A stretch of DNA of 64,000 nucleotides from the NCBI GenBank assembly GCA_963796455.1, contig CAWCLO010000004.1:896001-960000 (forward strand), written 5' to 3'. Positions 32,552-42,113 of the stretch are shown here, piece after piece (the stretch's first letter is position 1; each line of letters opens with the position of its first letter). Source of the DNA: Candidatus Sulfomarinibacteraceae bacterium (lineage in GTDB: Bacteria; Acidobacteriota; Thermoanaerobaculia; Thermoanaerobaculales; Sulfomarinibacteraceae). The position numbers and the translations under genes were made by a program. The notes beneath the pieces are model-generated. The model made no database searches and was not told the DNA's origin. It saw nothing but the letters and a program-made list of their open reading frames with translations.

Positions 32552-33235
32552 GTGGCCCGAGAATTCAGCCTACGTTTCGACCTCGATTTGAGCGAGGCCC
32601 TGGGAAGACGATTGTGCCCGGACGCCAAGATCGTTCAGGAGGATCGAAATCTGGTCATGGCCGGGCAGACGATGCTCGATCTCGACCGTCACAACGGCCT
32701 CGATGCGGCGTATCTCGCGATCGCCGAGCACCGTCCCTTGCCGCTCGGGCGATATCTTCTGATGCGGAACCGCGGTGAGGATGCTTTCTGGACCTATCAG
32801 GCGGTGGTCCACGATCTCGAAGAAAAGCCGTCCTGCCGTGCCGGAAACGTTCGCCGAAGTCTGACCGCGATTCTCAAGGACGGCGTCAAACGCGGTATGA
32901 CCTCGGTCTCCGTCGAGCCCCTCGGGGTGTGGCGGTCCCGGGGGCTCAAGATCGAGGAAATGGTGGACGCTTTCGAGGCTGCGGTTCTCGAGGTCAGCGT
33001 CGGGCTCGAAGCTCCGTTGCGGCTGACCCTGTTGCTCAGCGACCTCGAGCTTGTCGAGGAGGTCTCACACCTCTTGCGATCGCGTCTGCTGCGGAAGGCC
33101 AAGCGAAGTTTCAGGACCGTTGACGGAGAGTCTGCGCTGGTCGAAGTCAAACAGCGCGGTTTCAGGCTTCACTGCCGCTTCGTGCCCGGGTCCCTGTCGG
33201 GTTATTCCGTCACCTGCATGGATCACGCGGTCTGA
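32552..33235 (+). CDS. Hypothetical protein, possible degenerate macro-domain fold
   Basis: AVVHD...VRRSLTAILKDGVKRGMTSVSVEPLG resembles the macro-domain C-terminal half. Confidence 0.55.
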   Translation: MAREFSLRFDLDLSEALGRRLCPDAKIVQEDRNLVMAGQTMLDLDRHNGLDAAYLAIAEHRPLPLGRYLLMRNRGEDAFWTYQAVVHDLEEKPSCRAGNVRRSLTAILKDGVKRGMTSVSVEPLGVWRSRGLKIEEMVDAFEAAVLEVSVGLEAPLRLTLLLSDLELVEEVSHLLRSRLLRKAKRSFRTVDGESALVEVKQRGFRLHCRFVPGSLSGYSVTCMDHAV

Positions 33236-33431
33236 GGGTTCGCGACGGCTCACATCCGTTGTGCCTTCTTATGACCGACTCGGACGCGGCCACGCCGTCA
33301 CTTCCCCCGATTGCTGCCCCTGATCGCTGTTCCCGGTCGCTGCTCACTGTTCTGTCGCTGGACACTGTTGCTGCCGCTGCCGCCGCCAGCCGTCTCTGGC
33401 CACCCGATTCCCCTCCGTGTATGCTGTCCCG

Positions 33432-33806
<375 letters not shown>

Positions 33807-33948
33807 TTTAACACCGCCTGCCAAGTGGGAGGGTTGTCTTGACTGCGCAGAGGAGCAGAGGATAGGAGAGCAGGGGAGAGGGTGATGGAACGCACACTGG
33901 TTCGGGATTGATGGCCACCGGTGTCCGATCCGATGTAATGTTGAAAGC

Positions 33949-34842
33949 GTGAAATCGGAATTCGCACCCCTCGAGCCCGGTGAGCCGATCGGCGTGGTGG
34001 CATTGTCAGGGCCGGTGGACGACGACAAGCTCGATGCCGGTCTTTCGGTGTTGCGTGCCTGGGGGCATCCCTTGGTGGAAGCTTCCAATCTTCGCCTGAA
34101 GGACTTGTACCTTGCAGGTTCGGACCAAGAACGTCTCGCCGGTTTCGAAGAGGTGGTCGATTCGGGCGTCCGTTGGATCGTGGCGGCGAGGGGGGGCTAT
34201 GGTTCGACCCGTCTCCTCGAATCGGTCTCGTTTCCGGATCTGCGTCGGCGGGGTGTGCATCTGATCGGCTATTCGGACCTCACGGCATTTCTCAACCCTT
34301 TGGCCCTTGATGGAGGGGCGATTCAGTTTCATGGGCCCATGGTGGCGGCCGGTCTTACCCGGACTCACAACGCAAGGCGGCTGCACGAAATGCTGACGGG
34401 AGATTTGGTGGGTCAGATTCTCTATCGCTTTCCGCCGAGCTCGGTCCTTCGACCTGGCTGCGTCGATGGCACGGCACTTGGCGGAAATCTGACCCTTTTG
34501 TCGGCCCTCGTCGGCACACCGTGGGAACCTGATTTTGATGGTTCGGTTCTTTTTCTCGAAGAGGTCGGCGAGCCCCTCTACAAGCTCGATCGAATGTTGA
34601 CCCACCTCCGGGGCTCTGGTAGATTGCGCAACGTGAAAGCATTGATTGGCGGGAGCTTGCGCGGTTGTCGACCGGCTCCGGAACGATCAAGACGGTGGCG
34701 GATGTTGCTCGAAGAGACGGCGCCTCCCGGGGCCTCGATCGTGGTCGGGTTGCCCTTTGGTCACGGTGCCGCAAATCTCGCTTTTCCAATCGGCGCGCGG
34801 GTCGAACTCGACACCGGTGCCGGGTGCGTTGTCTGGAGTTGA
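33949..34842 (+). CDS. ldcA: LD-carboxypeptidase (S66)
   Basis: ARGGYG, GYSD, HGPM, GGNL, LFLEEV, PFGH. Confidence 0.92.
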   Translation: MKSEFAPLEPGEPIGVVALSGPVDDDKLDAGLSVLRAWGHPLVEASNLRLKDLYLAGSDQERLAGFEEVVDSGVRWIVAARGGYGSTRLLESVSFPDLRRRGVHLIGYSDLTAFLNPLALDGGAIQFHGPMVAAGLTRTHNARRLHEMLTGDLVGQILYRFPPSSVLRPGCVDGTALGGNLTLLSALVGTPWEPDFDGSVLFLEEVGEPLYKLDRMLTHLRGSGRLRNVKALIGGSLRGCRPAPERSRRWRMLLEETAPPGASIVVGLPFGHGAANLAFPIGARVELDTGAGCVVWS

Positions 34843-37716: not shown

Positions 37717-37933
37717 GAGCTCGAGATTATGGTGCGGCTCCGGGTGATGGCACAATAGGCTCACGTTCGATAGGAGGTTTCCAATTGCAGCACGGATCCG
37801 AAATTCAGACGATCACCGGCGGTGATTTCTACCAACGTCTTCGCACCCTCCAGGATCTCCTCGAGCTTGGTGACGAAATGGTCAGCGGGCGCGTCTGGGG
37901 TCGGTTGCAACGAATGGTCGGAGGTGATTTCTG

Positions 37934-39250
37934 ATGGGGAACAACCAATGGACACCCGGCGTCGACGATCCGCAACTGGTGGTCGAGCCGGGCCAGTTGG
38001 CTCATCTCGATACCAGTCCCGAAACCATGCTGCCTATTCCAGGCAGCCGAATGTTCGAAATCAACGAGGCGCTCAAGGTCTATCTCGCGGACCGGCCCGA
38101 TGGGGTGGTATTCGACGCCAGCCAGGGTGATGGTGGCGCGAGCCTGCCCGGGGTTCCGTCAGAGATCCTGGATATGGCCCATCGACTTCAAGTCGAACAT
38201 GGAACGGGTTACGACAAACCCTTCGGCACCCCGGAGTTCCGACGTTGTGTGGTCGAGGACTACTGGGGCCTGGATGCGGCAACCGGTTGGGGCCCGGCGA
38301 ATGTCATCGCCTGCCAGGGCGGTCGTGACGCGCTCATCAAGTCATACGATGCGGCCCAGTTCCTCGGTCACCGCCGGCGCGGCGACTTCGTAGTGACCTC
38401 CCGAGTGCCGTGGATCTCGTATAACTGGGGCCCCTACGCGGTTGGAGCCAACGTGATGCTGGCCCCCGGCCGTGAGAACGAAGCGTGGACCCTGACTCCT
38501 GAGGCCATCAACCAGTGCGGCGAATTCGCCGCGCGACTCGACGGGCGGCGTCTGGCGATGCTGGTGATCACGAGCCCCGACAACCCGACCGGCCGCAGCA
38601 TGACTCCGGAGCGCCAGATCCAAATCGCCCGAGCCGCCTTTGCAGCCGGGGTTCCCTATGTCTTCTTCGACTGGATCTATCACCGGGTGACCGATGGAGA
38701 AGCGAACGATCTCAACTCCTTTCTGGGCGCCCTCGAGCCCGAGGAACGAGAAAGGTGCATATTCCTTGACGGGCTCACCAAAGCCCTCGGTGCGAGCAAT
38801 ATCCGAAACGCCCACCTCGTCGCTTCAGAGAAGGTCATCAAGTTCATCCAGAGCCGCGCTTCCCACGCCGTGATTCCATCGTTCTACAGCCTCGCGGTGG
38901 CCATCGCAGCCTATAGGATGGGTTTTGCAGAGGCGTCAAAGACCATCGTCGGCCCCACCAACGCGTCCAGAAAAGTGATGGCCGGAAAGCTCGCCGAACT
39001 GGGGATCAACCACATTTTGGGCAAGGGATATTACGCCTTCCTCGATCTGGCCCCCTGGATCGAGAAAGCAGGTCTTGCAGACAGTGCCGAACTCGGAAGT
39101 CTGCTGGCGGAGCGTCACGGTCTGGCCGTCGTTCCCGGGGTCTATTTCTCCGAATACGGACGCAACTGGATTCGATTCTCCTACGCGTTGCCGCCGAGCA
39201 CGACGGAGGCGGCGGTAGATCGTTTGTGGGAAGCGCTGTCCTCGCTGTGA
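37934..39250 (+). CDS. PLP-dependent class I/II aminotransferase
   Basis: TSPDNPTG, FFDWIY, DGLTKALG..NIR, VVPGVYF, WIRFSYA; GGAGG SD. Confidence 0.9.
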   Translation: MGNNQWTPGVDDPQLVVEPGQLAHLDTSPETMLPIPGSRMFEINEALKVYLADRPDGVVFDASQGDGGASLPGVPSEILDMAHRLQVEHGTGYDKPFGTPEFRRCVVEDYWGLDAATGWGPANVIACQGGRDALIKSYDAAQFLGHRRRGDFVVTSRVPWISYNWGPYAVGANVMLAPGRENEAWTLTPEAINQCGEFAARLDGRRLAMLVITSPDNPTGRSMTPERQIQIARAAFAAGVPYVFFDWIYHRVTDGEANDLNSFLGALEPEERERCIFLDGLTKALGASNIRNAHLVASEKVIKFIQSRASHAVIPSFYSLAVAIAAYRMGFAEASKTIVGPTNASRKVMAGKLAELGINHILGKGYYAFLDLAPWIEKAGLADSAELGSLLAERHGLAVVPGVYFSEYGRNWIRFSYALPPSTTEAAVDRLWEALSSL

Positions 39251-39263
39251 GGGGCAGCGGATC

Positions 39264-42113
39264 ATGATGCGGCCCAAGGACTGGGGCCTTTTTGCCGAAA
39301 AGGTACAACTGGCGATCGAAAATTCACAGCAGGGTGACCCCAAGGGTGGGACGTCGGGTCTGGAGATCGAGTACAACATTCTCGATCGCGATCTCGCGCC
39401 GGTGGCGCATGTCGGTTACGGTCCGGAACGCAGGTCCTTCGCCGATTATCTCCACGATGAAAGGCTGCCCGATTGGGTTCGGGATCGATTTCAGCTCGAG
39501 GTCTTCCATTGGATGACCGAGCTCACGACCCAACCCTGTTATTCGGCCCGGGCCACCGCCGCTCAATCGCGACTTCTCGAGGGCGTGCTGCTCGATACGC
39601 TCGCGGATATCGGTCATTCCTTTGGTGCGTCCTTCCTCGCAATGCACGGAAATATTCCCTGTCAGGTCGATGTGAACGGTGGCAGCATTCCGGATGGGTG
39701 GAACCTCGCCCGCCAGCGCTACCTCAGAAAGTGTGTCGATCTCTTTGGCGATCGTCTCGCGACGGCGGGGATTCACACCAACCACAGTTTTCCCGAGGCA
39801 CTCCTGTCGTGGGACTTCTTCCACCTTCCGCTCTCCGAGCGCCAGGGCAGGACCATCGAGTACTATCGCAATCATTCGGTGATCCGAGCGACCCGGTTGC
39901 TGCGGCCGATGTGTCCGGTGTTCATTGCAGTCAGCGCCGCCTCACCATTTGCGTGGGAGCAGGTCGAGGGCGCCAACCAGATTGTCCTGACCGATTTTGA
40001 CTCCTGCCGGCTGCTCGCATTCCCCAACCCCGAGGATCTCGATGTTTCGGGTCTCTACGGAAGCCACGCGGACTACCTCGACATCTCCTACCGATTGGTG
40101 AGATCGGGCGTCCGCTTCGGCGCCAACAACTGGACCCCGGTGAGAGCCCGTTCCGATGTCGATCCGGTTCGCCGCAATATCACCGCAACCAGCGATCAGC
40201 TGCGGGAGCTTTACAGCCGCGGCATCTATCCAACCGGCGAGCACGGCAGTCTCGAGGAAGCCGAACGCGCACTGGTGGTCGAAAACCTCTGCGCCCGGGT
40301 CGATCTGCCGATGAACCGGGTGGAGGTGCGCACCGACGAGGGCGGGGATGATCTCGCGCTTGCGACGGCCAAGATCCTCTTCAAAGATCTCCTGATGTTG
40401 CGGATCTATGCCGAACCGGAGTACGGCGCCAGCTATGCGTACGACGTCGCCGACATCGCCCGGGCGCGGGCGAATGAAAAGGCGGCGGCGCGGCGCGGCC
40501 TGGACGCTTCGATCGAACACCCCATGACCGGTACAAAAATCAGCATCCGAGCCTATCTCGGGGAGTTGCTCGAAGAGATTGCTCCTCTGGCGACGGCGCT
40601 CGGAGCCGGCGAGGAACTTGCGCCACTTCATGAGATGGCGGCCGGCGGGCCCAATCCGGCCGCGATGATCCGTGCCGGTTTTACCAAGGCGGTCGGAACC
40701 GATGCACCGCGAGCGCCTTCGGGTGCGAGGGTGATTCCATCATCGATGTTGATTGATCTGTTCGAACAACGTCGCCGGATGATCGCCCGGGAGACCCAGG
40801 AGATCGCCGACCGACCCGACCGTCAGGGCGCCGAGTGGCCAAAGATGGCCCCTCTCGTGGCGGGGCTCGAAAGCTTGGCGGTCGAACGGCCGGCGATGCC
40901 GGTTCGGCTCGGCAGGGCCACGGAAGGAGTGCGGGTCGAGGGACTCGGTGATCGCGCATCGGAGGTCCTGGCGCTGGCTGTCGATCTGGTGCGGATCCCA
41001 TCGGTGACGAACTGCCCCGATGAGCGTTTGGAGCAGGTCTTTTCGTGCGCCGGATTTGTCGCCAACCACCTTGCTTCGGGCAAACTGGATGTCAGGCTCT
41101 TCGACCGCGGCCGCTATCCGGCGGTGGTCGCCGCGTTTCCCGGCGTGACCCAACCGAAAATCACCCTGTGTGGACACTTCGACGTGGTGCGTCCGGAACC
41201 GGACGACGCCCAGTTCGAACCTCGCATCCAAGGAGACTATCTGTGGGGTCGTGGATCGGCTGATATGAAAACCGTGGTTGCAAGCTACATGGTTTGGATG
41301 CGCGAACGGTTGGCCATGGGGCCGCCATACCCGCCCTTCAACTTGTTATTGATTGGCAACGAGGAGAACGGAGAGGGTGATCCTTTTGGCACTCCTCACG
41401 TCCTCAAAACCCTTGAAAAGGAGAGTGGGTGGCGCCCGGAGTTGATGGTGGTTGGTGAGCGGACCGGAGAAAAAGGAGACGAACTCTACGGAGAAGTGTG
41501 CACCGAAAGCAGGGGAATCCTGCGCGCTCACCTAACGGCCCGGGGCGTCAGCGGTCACACCGGAACCAGCGGCAGCCCGGCGGATCTCCTCGATCAACTT
41601 GTCGAGGCCCAGGCGGTTCTCAAATCTTTTTTCAAAAGGCACCTGACCCTCGCCAGTGTCGATGGGTGGGAGACAACCGCTCGCTTCCCCTTCCTCAATG
41701 TCGGCGAGCCCGGGGTGTACAACATCACGGCATCGCTGGGGGTACTCGGTATCGAGATCCGCCCGATCCCGGGCGACGATCTGGACGGTTTCGTGAAAGA
41801 GACCAGGGATCTCTGCCGCGAACTCGGTCTCGAGGCGGTCGTGGAGCTCATGGAACCCGGAGTCAGTTGCCCTCCGACCAATCCCCATCTCGGACAGTTG
41901 TTGCAGGCCGTCGAGGATGTTTCGGGCGCACCGGCGGTGGTTGGCAAAAAGAAGCCGGGTTCTTCAGCCCGTTTTGCGCCAGGCGGCAATCAGGTCGTGT
42001 GGGGGCAATCGGGCATCGGGCCCCACTCGCGAGAAGAGCGCCATTTCATCCCGTCGATCGAACCGTATATGCAGGTCCTCGACGCCTTTGCCACCAAGCT
42101 CCTTTCAGAATGA
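39264..42113 (+). CDS. Fusion: GCS2-like glutamate-cysteine/carboxylate-amine ligase + M20 (DapE/ArgE-like) metallohydrolase
   Basis: N-half GLEIEY, MTELTT, AGIHTNHS, SAASPF, NNWTPVR, RVEVR; C-half GHFDVV, GRGSADMK, GNEE, VGE, PHSREE. Confidence 0.82.
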   Translation: MMRPKDWGLFAEKVQLAIENSQQGDPKGGTSGLEIEYNILDRDLAPVAHVGYGPERRSFADYLHDERLPDWVRDRFQLEVFHWMTELTTQPCYSARATAAQSRLLEGVLLDTLADIGHSFGASFLAMHGNIPCQVDVNGGSIPDGWNLARQRYLRKCVDLFGDRLATAGIHTNHSFPEALLSWDFFHLPLSERQGRTIEYYRNHSVIRATRLLRPMCPVFIAVSAASPFAWEQVEGANQIVLTDFDSCRLLAFPNPEDLDVSGLYGSHADYLDISYRLVRSGVRFGANNWTPVRARSDVDPVRRNITATSDQLRELYSRGIYPTGEHGSLEEAERALVVENLCARVDLPMNRVEVRTDEGGDDLALATAKILFKDLLMLRIYAEPEYGASYAYDVADIARARANEKAAARRGLDASIEHPMTGTKISIRAYLGELLEEIAPLATALGAGEELAPLHEMAAGGPNPAAMIRAGFTKAVGTDAPRAPSGARVIPSSMLIDLFEQRRRMIARETQEIADRPDRQGAEWPKMAPLVAGLESLAVERPAMPVRLGRATEGVRVEGLGDRASEVLALAVDLVRIPSVTNCPDERLEQVFSCAGFVANHLASGKLDVRLFDRGRYPAVVAAFPGVTQPKITLCGHFDVVRPEPDDAQFEPRIQGDYLWGRGSADMKTVVASYMVWMRERLAMGPPYPPFNLLLIGNEENGEGDPFGTPHVLKTLEKESGWRPELMVVGERTGEKGDELYGEVCTESRGILRAHLTARGVSGHTGTSGSPADLLDQLVEAQAVLKSFFKRHLTLASVDGWETTARFPFLNVGEPGVYNITASLGVLGIEIRPIPGDDLDGFVKETRDLCRELGLEAVVELMEPGVSCPPTNPHLGQLLQAVEDVSGAPAVVGKKKPGSSARFAPGGNQVVWGQSGIGPHSREERHFIPSIEPYMQVLDAFATKLLSE

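Follow-up and report, generated by a model that had tools for sequence, protein, structure and literature searches.

What an aminotransferase, an amide-forming ligase and an amide-cleaving hydrolase do together in a two-gene unit is the question raised by a locus of a Candidatus Sulfomarinibacteraceae bacterium (Acidobacteriota, class Thermoanaerobaculia). The window analysed is a stretch of 64,000 nucleotides (nt) from contig CAWCLO010000004.1 (positions 896,001 to 960,000), and its plus strand carries an open reading frame (ORF) of 438 amino acids (aa) at 37934-39250, followed after 13 nt by one of 949 aa at 39264-42113. The original prediction had described the unit as a possible pathway in which ATP-dependent glutamylation replaces acyl-CoA blocking of an amine, and both ORFs and the short gap were found as claimed. 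The pair encodes a real, conserved three-enzyme module that is apparently described in no paper found; in the available parts of the openly readable papers that were searched, none dealt with the aminotransferase/ligase-M20 unit or its leader. The alternative DapE and ArgE enzymes of GapMind 2026 are, in the part of that source available, described as other proteins and are set apart by description (PMC13759103). Judged from sequence, the parts of the module belong to known superfamilies and score below every equivalog cut-off. Part of the overall reading offered by the original prediction is supported, in that the three activities look intact from their conserved residues, the two genes stay together across genomes and a part in amino-acid anabolism is likely; the replacement of acyl-CoA blocking is not supported. 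A role in the anabolism of the aspartate family in particular is considered probable, and with a probability of roughly one in three the pair is a self-contained module, inherited together, that would raise the aspartate pool through an ATP-driven transamination ratchet.

Conservation and distribution of the pair

A scan of GTDB yielded 96 relatives, from which 78 distinct loci were kept, mostly titled Acidobacteriota (Thermoanaerobaculia) and Anaerolineae. The aminotransferase gene lies upstream of the fusion on the same strand in 73 of these loci and is at most 300 nt away in 61 of the 73; among the five that lack it, three abut a contig edge, and in the other two 344 and 1424 nt of sequence were available. 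Ligase and M20 domains share one ORF in 68 of the 70 loci that contain both, eight loci being cut short. In a second sample of 80 metagenome loci, found via the aminotransferase, the ligase follows downstream in 54 of the 62 where 400 nt or more of sequence is available and is fused to M20 in 34/34. With such counts the arrangement is not due to chance, and the conservation of the pair extends over two phyla. Genes come between the two partners in 12 loci and are mostly on the opposite strand or unrelated. An apparent triple fusion, a 1442-aa ORF at locus L013, was rejected, as a frameshift lies near the aminotransferase end and the true C-terminus and stop are in another frame.

The distribution is patchy. 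Carriers make up 11 of 121 genomes in the class of the window, 9 of 14 others in its family and 5 of 201 genomes in the class of G138, an Anaerolineales genome. The order of the window was sampled through the window's own genome, which is 90.5% complete, and 28 further genomes (10 carriers and 18 non-carriers). Profile searches also returned a distant 997-aa ligase-M20 fusion and standalone ligases of 550-590 aa (P0197, P0207 and relatives), one of them from Candidatus Gracilibacteria. Among the neighbourhoods listed no third gene is common to the lineages, the only synteny being at family level (recG, FHA, S66 and AIM24), and therefore the module should run on central metabolites. Neither a transporter or peptidase nor GshB, EgtB or EgtC is kept near the pair in the neighbourhoods compared across loci. 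In one Anaerolineaceae genome (L070:11107-17606), a single instance, the pair stands 224 nt upstream of argC-argB-argD-argA-argG-argJ-argH.

The ligase-hydrolase fusion and the aminotransferase

The larger ORF comprises a carboxylate-amine ligase domain of the GCS2/YbdK fold (aa 1 to ~480, 39264..40703), recognised by profile, alignment and predicted fold, a helical linker (aa ~481-560, 40704..40943) taken from the secondary structure of the model, and an M20 metallo-amidohydrolase domain (aa ~561-949, 40944..42113) identified by PF01546, PDB matches and invariant residues; all lie on the plus strand. The GCS2-like domain had been drawn to ~40950, and this holds with the ligase core ending at about aa 480 (nt 40703) and the linker at about aa 560 (nt 40944). 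A stretch comparable to the linker is aligned at the C-terminus of the standalone ligases from candidate phyla. The predicted model of the full-length fusion has a mean confidence score (pLDDT) of 84.5.

The ligase domain matches Pfam GCS2 weakly (E 0.001, below the cut-off) and TIGR02048, the cyanobacterial GshA model, with an E-value of 9e-12, and YbdK models match it too; 22-23 of the 24 aligned ligase members match the cyanobacterial GshA and YbdK models. The equivalog level is not reached, the scores being 47.5 bits against a cut-off of 249 for TIGR02048 and 34-37 against 409-425 for the YbdK models. The domain model (pLDDT 86) finds YbdK as its best Foldseek match (E 6e-12) and superimposes on it with a Z-score of 32.1 and a root-mean-square deviation of 3.0 over 328 aligned residues, followed by GshF, GshA, Dop, PafA and glutamine synthetase. 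The GxExE motif (G32, E34, E36), E354/R356/D358, R249 and R294 are invariant in 24/24 ligase sequences, and further residues of the site are E79, E86, H171, R352-E354-R356 and the RY motif R152/Y153, which presumably marks an amino-acid acceptor. GhExE, Ex[RK]x(2)D and two active-site arginines are the motifs of carboxylate-amine ligases, and the two arginines kept here are lacking in GatB and GatE, according to the accessible part of the source (PMC2588565). Therefore the domain appears glutamyl-ligase-like, and overall it resembles a gamma-glutamyl ligase whose acceptor is an amino acid. As a lead only, unnamed ESM Atlas clusters of about 470 aa from Nucleocytoviricota match the ligase domain with a feature score of 0.92.

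The C-terminal part matches PF01546 (E 1e-15) and is DapE/ArgE-like, yet it stays under all NCBIfam equivalog cut-offs (79.7 against 284 bits for the DapE model NF009557), and the match to the dimerisation domain PF07687 is weak (E 0.002). Its metal ligands had been called intact, and H638, D640, D667, E700, E701, E732 and H921 are indeed invariant in 26/26 aligned sequences. Other residues of note are H765, N820 and R833, whose equivalents in DapE-type enzymes bind the carboxylate of the N-acyl amino acid, and the family-specific R733 and K896. The nearest structures are 2RB7 (E 7e-19, 26% identity, TM-score 0.84) and DapE. In the DapE 'GRRG' motif the first Arg, which presumably has a substrate-site role in DapE, is exchanged for Ser or Asn. 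Database sources label the fusion either 'succinyl-diaminopimelate desuccinylase' (DapE) or M20 hydrolase.

The first gene (37934..39250, plus strand) encodes a class I pyridoxal 5'-phosphate (PLP) aminotransferase that matches PF00155 (E 1e-24), so that profile searches bear out the proposed domains, the Pfam GCS2 match being the weak one. K283, D246, Y249, N217, R291 and R414, the class I PLP set with the arginine for the alpha-carboxylate, are invariant in 30/30 aligned sequences, as are W160, Y93 and R131. Its nearest solved relatives are subgroup-Ib aspartate aminotransferases (AspATs; 1J32, E 4e-18), a result with which the profile search agrees; the protein scores below the AspAT model cut-offs. 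R131 aligns with K101 of the Thermus AspAT, Arg in place of Lys, at a position that presumably binds the distal carboxylate. A basic residue here in an AspAT-like enzyme agrees with a role in aspartate supply. None of the three domains looks dead because their catalytic residues are invariant in the alignments.

A predicted attenuator upstream of the Anaerolineae copies

Ahead of the Anaerolineae copies a promoter is followed by a short leaderless ORF, which begins where transcription presumably starts, and then by a terminator. Among 94 Chloroflexota-type loci 86 have enough upstream DNA and 68 gave automatic leader-plus-terminator calls; L067 and L077 were dropped, the ORF picked lying away from the promoter and the L077 leader running through its stop, which left 66 leaders, 61 of them unique. 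The leader starts 6-10 nt past the -10 hexamer in 61/67 leaders. The best window of seven codons holds on average 5.8 codons for Asn, Thr or Asp (N/T/D); the other two frames average 2.2 and 1.6, and none of 200 shuffles exceeded 2.6. Asn is found in 61/61 and Thr in 58/61 unique leaders, and the pooled control windows consist of 35% Thr, 28% Asn, 9% Arg, 8% Asp, 0.7% Lys and 0.4% Cys. Third positions account for 238 of 350 base differences in N/T/D codons, and 309 of 443 changes in the control columns remain within N/T/D. An antiterminator duplex better than in shuffles is present in 41/61 leaders, a median of 19 nt past the control run; the L074 leader, for instance, folds into alternative antiterminator and terminator structures. 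In 5/5 genomes the terminator pattern has a single occurrence, at this operon, and a search of Rfam matched no family to the leader and only a neighbouring tRNA.

With a control-codon run under coding selection and mutually exclusive hairpins, the Anaerolineae leader is predicted to be a ribosome-mediated attenuator with Asn, Thr, Asp and Arg as control codons, and a shortage of any of the corresponding charged tRNAs would switch the operon on. Three other explanations of the signal were rejected. The frame +1 reading, an Ile/Leu/Val leader, was taken to be a by-product, given a promoter-adjacent start in the N/T frame and changes at third positions; L119 has both N/T and Ile/Leu/Val runs. For the sensing of queuosine codons, N/D/H/Y reached 3.79, with another frame at 3.38. 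A bias towards A and C does not by itself account for the signal, K/Q/H/P not being enriched.

How such leaders are to be read was calibrated on four leaders from two genomes (G138 and G254). The lysC-asd leader is rich in Thr and Met (TMTMTTT), that of argG-argH-lysX in Arg (RRTRRTK) and that of ilvD in Leu, Ile and Val. These leaders match their pathways and therefore leaders in this lineage appear to name end products, which makes the leader peptides of Anaerolineae a guide to the pathways of operons of unknown role. These predicted Anaerolineales attenuators are arranged in back-to-back pairs within one intergenic region (L238:11338-11750 in G138 and L240:6618-7137 in G254). Asn and Thr are both made from aspartate, and argininosuccinate synthase takes it as a substrate. 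All four amino acids of the control codons thus draw on aspartate, and Lys, which is rare in the leader, is made via LysW in these genomes. If leaders report products, the codons for Asn, Thr, Asp and Arg therefore point to aspartate supply as the simplest reading of the leader, which narrows the search for substrates to a small set of inexpensive assays.

A proposed ATP-driven cycle for aspartate

It is proposed that the three enzymes of the original prediction be kept and their logic changed, so that a donor is activated where the prediction had an intermediate protected. The ligase would spend ATP to link glutamate, through its gamma-carboxyl, to the amino group of a carrier amino acid (X), the aminotransferase would then pass the alpha-amino group of gamma-Glu-X to oxaloacetate to give aspartate and 2-oxoglutaryl-X, and the M20 domain would cleave the latter into 2-oxoglutarate and X, making the transamination irreversible. 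The net reaction would be Glu + oxaloacetate + ATP -> aspartate + 2-oxoglutarate + ADP + Pi. That a gamma-glutamyl-amino acid serves as a catalytic amino-group carrier for aspartate in Acidobacteriota, Chloroflexota and possibly candidate phyla, under a leaderless Asn/Thr/Asp/Arg attenuator, is put forward tentatively and would not surprise us if wrong. Aspartate supply is usually treated as one reversible transamination. A module spending ATP on aspartate, or an ADP-forming asparagine synthetase as discussed below, would add a step to the core nitrogen metabolism of sediment and sludge bacteria, and many database labels would need correction, the fusion being named 'succinyl-diaminopimelate desuccinylase' although DapB is lacking from the order.

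Several observations weigh against aspartate supply by such a ratchet. The known ratchets have nitrilase-fold omega-amidases and not M20 enzymes, and an M20 domain that cut gamma-Glu-X directly could turn the sequence into a futile cycle. The window's own copy has no attenuator upstream of 37934, as is also the case for the Acidobacteriota copies among those listed, and therefore the link to aspartate is carried over from the Chloroflexota. Within the Chloroflexota-type set 18/86 loci gave no automatic leader call and 20/61 leaders have no significant antiterminator; N/T content was the tie-breaker in the choice of leader ORF, the windows were picked to maximise N/T/D and the sequences are related. 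Ile/Leu/Val codons are over-represented in frame +1 (4.67 vs 2.87), the antiterminator pairs with part of the Asn-Thr run, and lysC leaders also contain a few Asn codons. Carriage of the module tracks Asd weakly (5/11 carriers vs 5/18 non-carriers). An ordinary AspAT-like gene is present in the window's genome (C10:117476), adjoining phosphoenolpyruvate carboxykinase, and SAT-motif class I enzymes are found in three Anaerolineae carriers. Finally, the aminotransferase of the module resembles AspATs more than it does Rv0858c-like enzymes (E 1.7e-4 for the latter), and characterised glutamine transaminases fall in a different clade, as far as the available text of the source goes (PMC9309667).

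Alternative functions

The alternative that survives best, and which is rated as rather unlikely, is that the aminotransferase is an AspAT feeding a new ADP-forming asparagine synthetase, in which the ligase would phosphorylate and amidate the beta-carboxyl of aspartate and the M20 domain would supply the amine or clear beta-aspartyl peptides. Asn is the sole codon present in all 61 leader windows. AsnS occurs in 28 of the 29 genomes of the order and GatB in 0/29, so free Asn would be needed; GatB is nevertheless present in 11/11 Anaerolineae carriers. AsnA was not found in the window's genome, two of its three AsnB hits lie among glycosyltransferases, and the one AsnB of G138 lies in a polysaccharide cluster, but AsnB-like genes occur in 41/41 genomes and there is no displacement of AsnA, which is found in 4/11 carriers and 6/18 non-carriers. 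The ligase moreover keeps the glutamyl-ligase arginines and the RY motif, and M20 enzymes are not known to be glutaminases, which also counts against this function. In its favour, GatB shows that the fold can work on an aspartyl group, as stated in the consulted portion of the source (PMC2588565). More broadly, displacement by the module of DapB, AsnA, AsnB, GatB, AsnS, ThrC, Asd, LysA or LysX was considered and discarded, since no clean pattern was seen. The window's genome lacks asnS, which is probably in the unassembled part, and has an archaeal-type GatE/GatD-like pair at C1:830935-834311.

Salvage is improbable. Here the fusion would free Asp, Glu and others from beta-aspartyl or gamma-glutamyl peptides, with the ligase fold running in reverse or deamidating as Dop does, and the aminotransferase would rebalance the products. 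The structural matches include Dop (Z 21.1), yet the fold is nearer to YbdK and GshA (Z 32-24). Induction by starvation would suit salvage as much as synthesis and many carriers are short of biosynthetic genes (Asd in 5/11, LysA in 4/11), but no transporter or peptidase is conserved nearby and five GGT homologues are already present in the window's genome. Standalone homologues of the ligase in Gracilibacteria also fit a salvage function.

The protection route of the original prediction, in which ATP-dependent glutamylation would shield an amine in a variant diaminopimelate (DAP), ornithine or LysW-like route, the aminotransferase would work on the shielded keto acid and the M20 domain would remove the shield, now carries little probability. 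It draws on the DapE-like M20 domain, on the fact that DapC can be class I and on the derivation of DAP from aspartate; the exchanged first Arg of 'GRRG' and the few Lys codons in the leader run counter to it. The window's genome has DapF, LysA and a DNPR-type MurE, and DapA, DapB and DapD were not found in its 90.5% complete assembly, which leaves tetrahydrodipicolinate without an apparent source as substrate. DapB was found in none of the 29 genomes of the order, whether carriers or non-carriers, and in 3/7 Chloroflexota carriers. DapF occurs in all 29, including the 18 non-carriers, so it does not distinguish carriers, and it is found in 0/7 Anaerolineae carriers, whose MurE has AEDPR in place of DNPR in 5/5 and whose DapA-like hits adjoin a proline-racemase-like gene in 3/4. 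LysA is more frequent in carriers (4/11 vs 1/18 non-carriers), three of those four belonging to one genus. A variant DAP route is not borne out by these patterns. The ornithine variant fares no better, as an acetylated arginine route with argE is present in the window's genome (argC, argB, argD, argE, argG and argH), although at L070 the pair lies just 5' of an arg cluster. For the LysW variant, G138 has the whole LysW cluster including lysK, and LysX scores above cut-off in 3/4 Anaerolineae carriers. The omega-transaminations of the Arg and LysW routes are carried out by class III aminotransferases, which a class I enzyme does not fit. With ThrC found in 10/11 carriers, gene content shows no missing step in the DAP, ornithine, LysW or threonine routes that the unit would fill.

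In the window's genome DapF is encoded at C10:641278-642117 with mpl near it, and lysA lies within a peptidoglycan-recycling cluster. Scavenging, lanthionine or another racemase role are possibilities for the source of the wall diamino acid in the order, and an alternative racemase role is described for Fusobacterium in the part of the source available (PMC11602996). The arginine operon of the same genome (C1:539820-547786) includes an N-acyl-ornithine carbamoyltransferase-like gene and an unassigned 414-aa ORF between argG and argC; the queries used found neither ArgA nor ArgJ, and contig C7 has a second argG-argH.

Synthesis and turnover of gamma-glutamylcysteine had been named as a further option. 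A synthetase of this glutathione type with a built-in peptidase, the PLP enzyme being a C-S lyase or cysteine transaminase, is highly doubtful: GshA and YbdK are the top profile and fold matches, the RY motif is kept and two GshB-like genes occur in the window's genome, but this genome has a second canonical GCS2 above cut-off that resembles EgtA by eye (C1:704068-705435), GshB, EgtB and EgtC are not conserved near the pair, Cys makes up only 0.4% of the leader control window, and PatB-type C-S lyases score far below AspATs. One GshB-like gene (C2:179029-182165) adjoins a putatively QEGLA-motif-like protein.

Surroundings of the pair in the window

Directly after recG, a candidate extended -10 promoter element, TGGCACAAT, can be read on the plus strand at 37748..37756, and the same 9-mer stands ahead of the aminotransferase gene in many close relatives; the promoter scan called no plus-strand promoter at this position. 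An ORF of 49 codons follows (37785..37934, plus strand), which by eye is an apparent remnant of an internally deleted DUF1232 gene; in L008 and other relatives a DUF1232 gene (PF06803) stands 5' of the aminotransferase. Its TGA overlaps the ATG of the aminotransferase, to which it looks translationally coupled. Further upstream the intergenic stretch 33235-33949 (region 33298-33807) resembles an RNase P RNA gene in its pseudo-translation.

Comparison with known systems

The proposed aspartate ratchet works most like the pairing of a glutamine transaminase with an omega-amidase (MtnE/MtnU, GTK/Nit2), fed by glutamine synthetase, with which it shares an ATP-made gamma-glutamyl amide, a class I aminotransferase and an amide hydrolase. 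In this 'ketoglutaramate ratchet', amide hydrolysis could make transamination one-way, for methionine, according to the accessible text (PMC6302742). The module differs in that its ligase has the GCS2 fold, its hydrolase is an M20 enzyme and not a nitrilase, ligase and hydrolase are fused, the aminotransferase is AspAT-like and the regulation points to aspartate and not to methionine. As the hydrolase does not have the nitrilase fold of the omega-amidases, the likeness is one of working principle and not of membership. The GCS2/YbdK and GshA ligases (1R8G, 1TT4, 1V4G, 3NZT; TIGR02048) resemble the ligase domain in fold (Z 24-32) and in their GhExE, Ex[RK] and two-arginine motifs; the domain is set apart by 13-21% identity, insertions, the M20 fusion and linkage to an aminotransferase and not to GshB or EgtB.

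The DapD-DapC-DapE, ArgA-ArgD-ArgE and LysX-LysJ-LysK trios likewise combine an acylating, a transaminating and an M20 deacylating enzyme; with respect to the module, DapA and DapB are missing or the canonical route is already present, no carrier gene is conserved near the pair and the acylating enzyme is neither of the acyl-CoA nor of the ATP-grasp type. The glutathionylspermidine synthetase/amidase of E. coli, Gsp, also makes and breaks an amide in one polypeptide, but its folds differ, being ATP-grasp and CHAP, and it has no aminotransferase. The Desulfovibrio M20 peptidase 2RB7, the best full-length match to the M20 domain, is a standalone protein whose title gives no substrate. The predicted leader, lastly, shares with attenuators of the thrL, ilvL and trpL type a short ORF with runs of control codons and a mutually exclusive antiterminator and terminator, and differs from them in being leaderless, in its Asn, Thr, Asp and Arg codons and in its occurrence in Anaerolineae.

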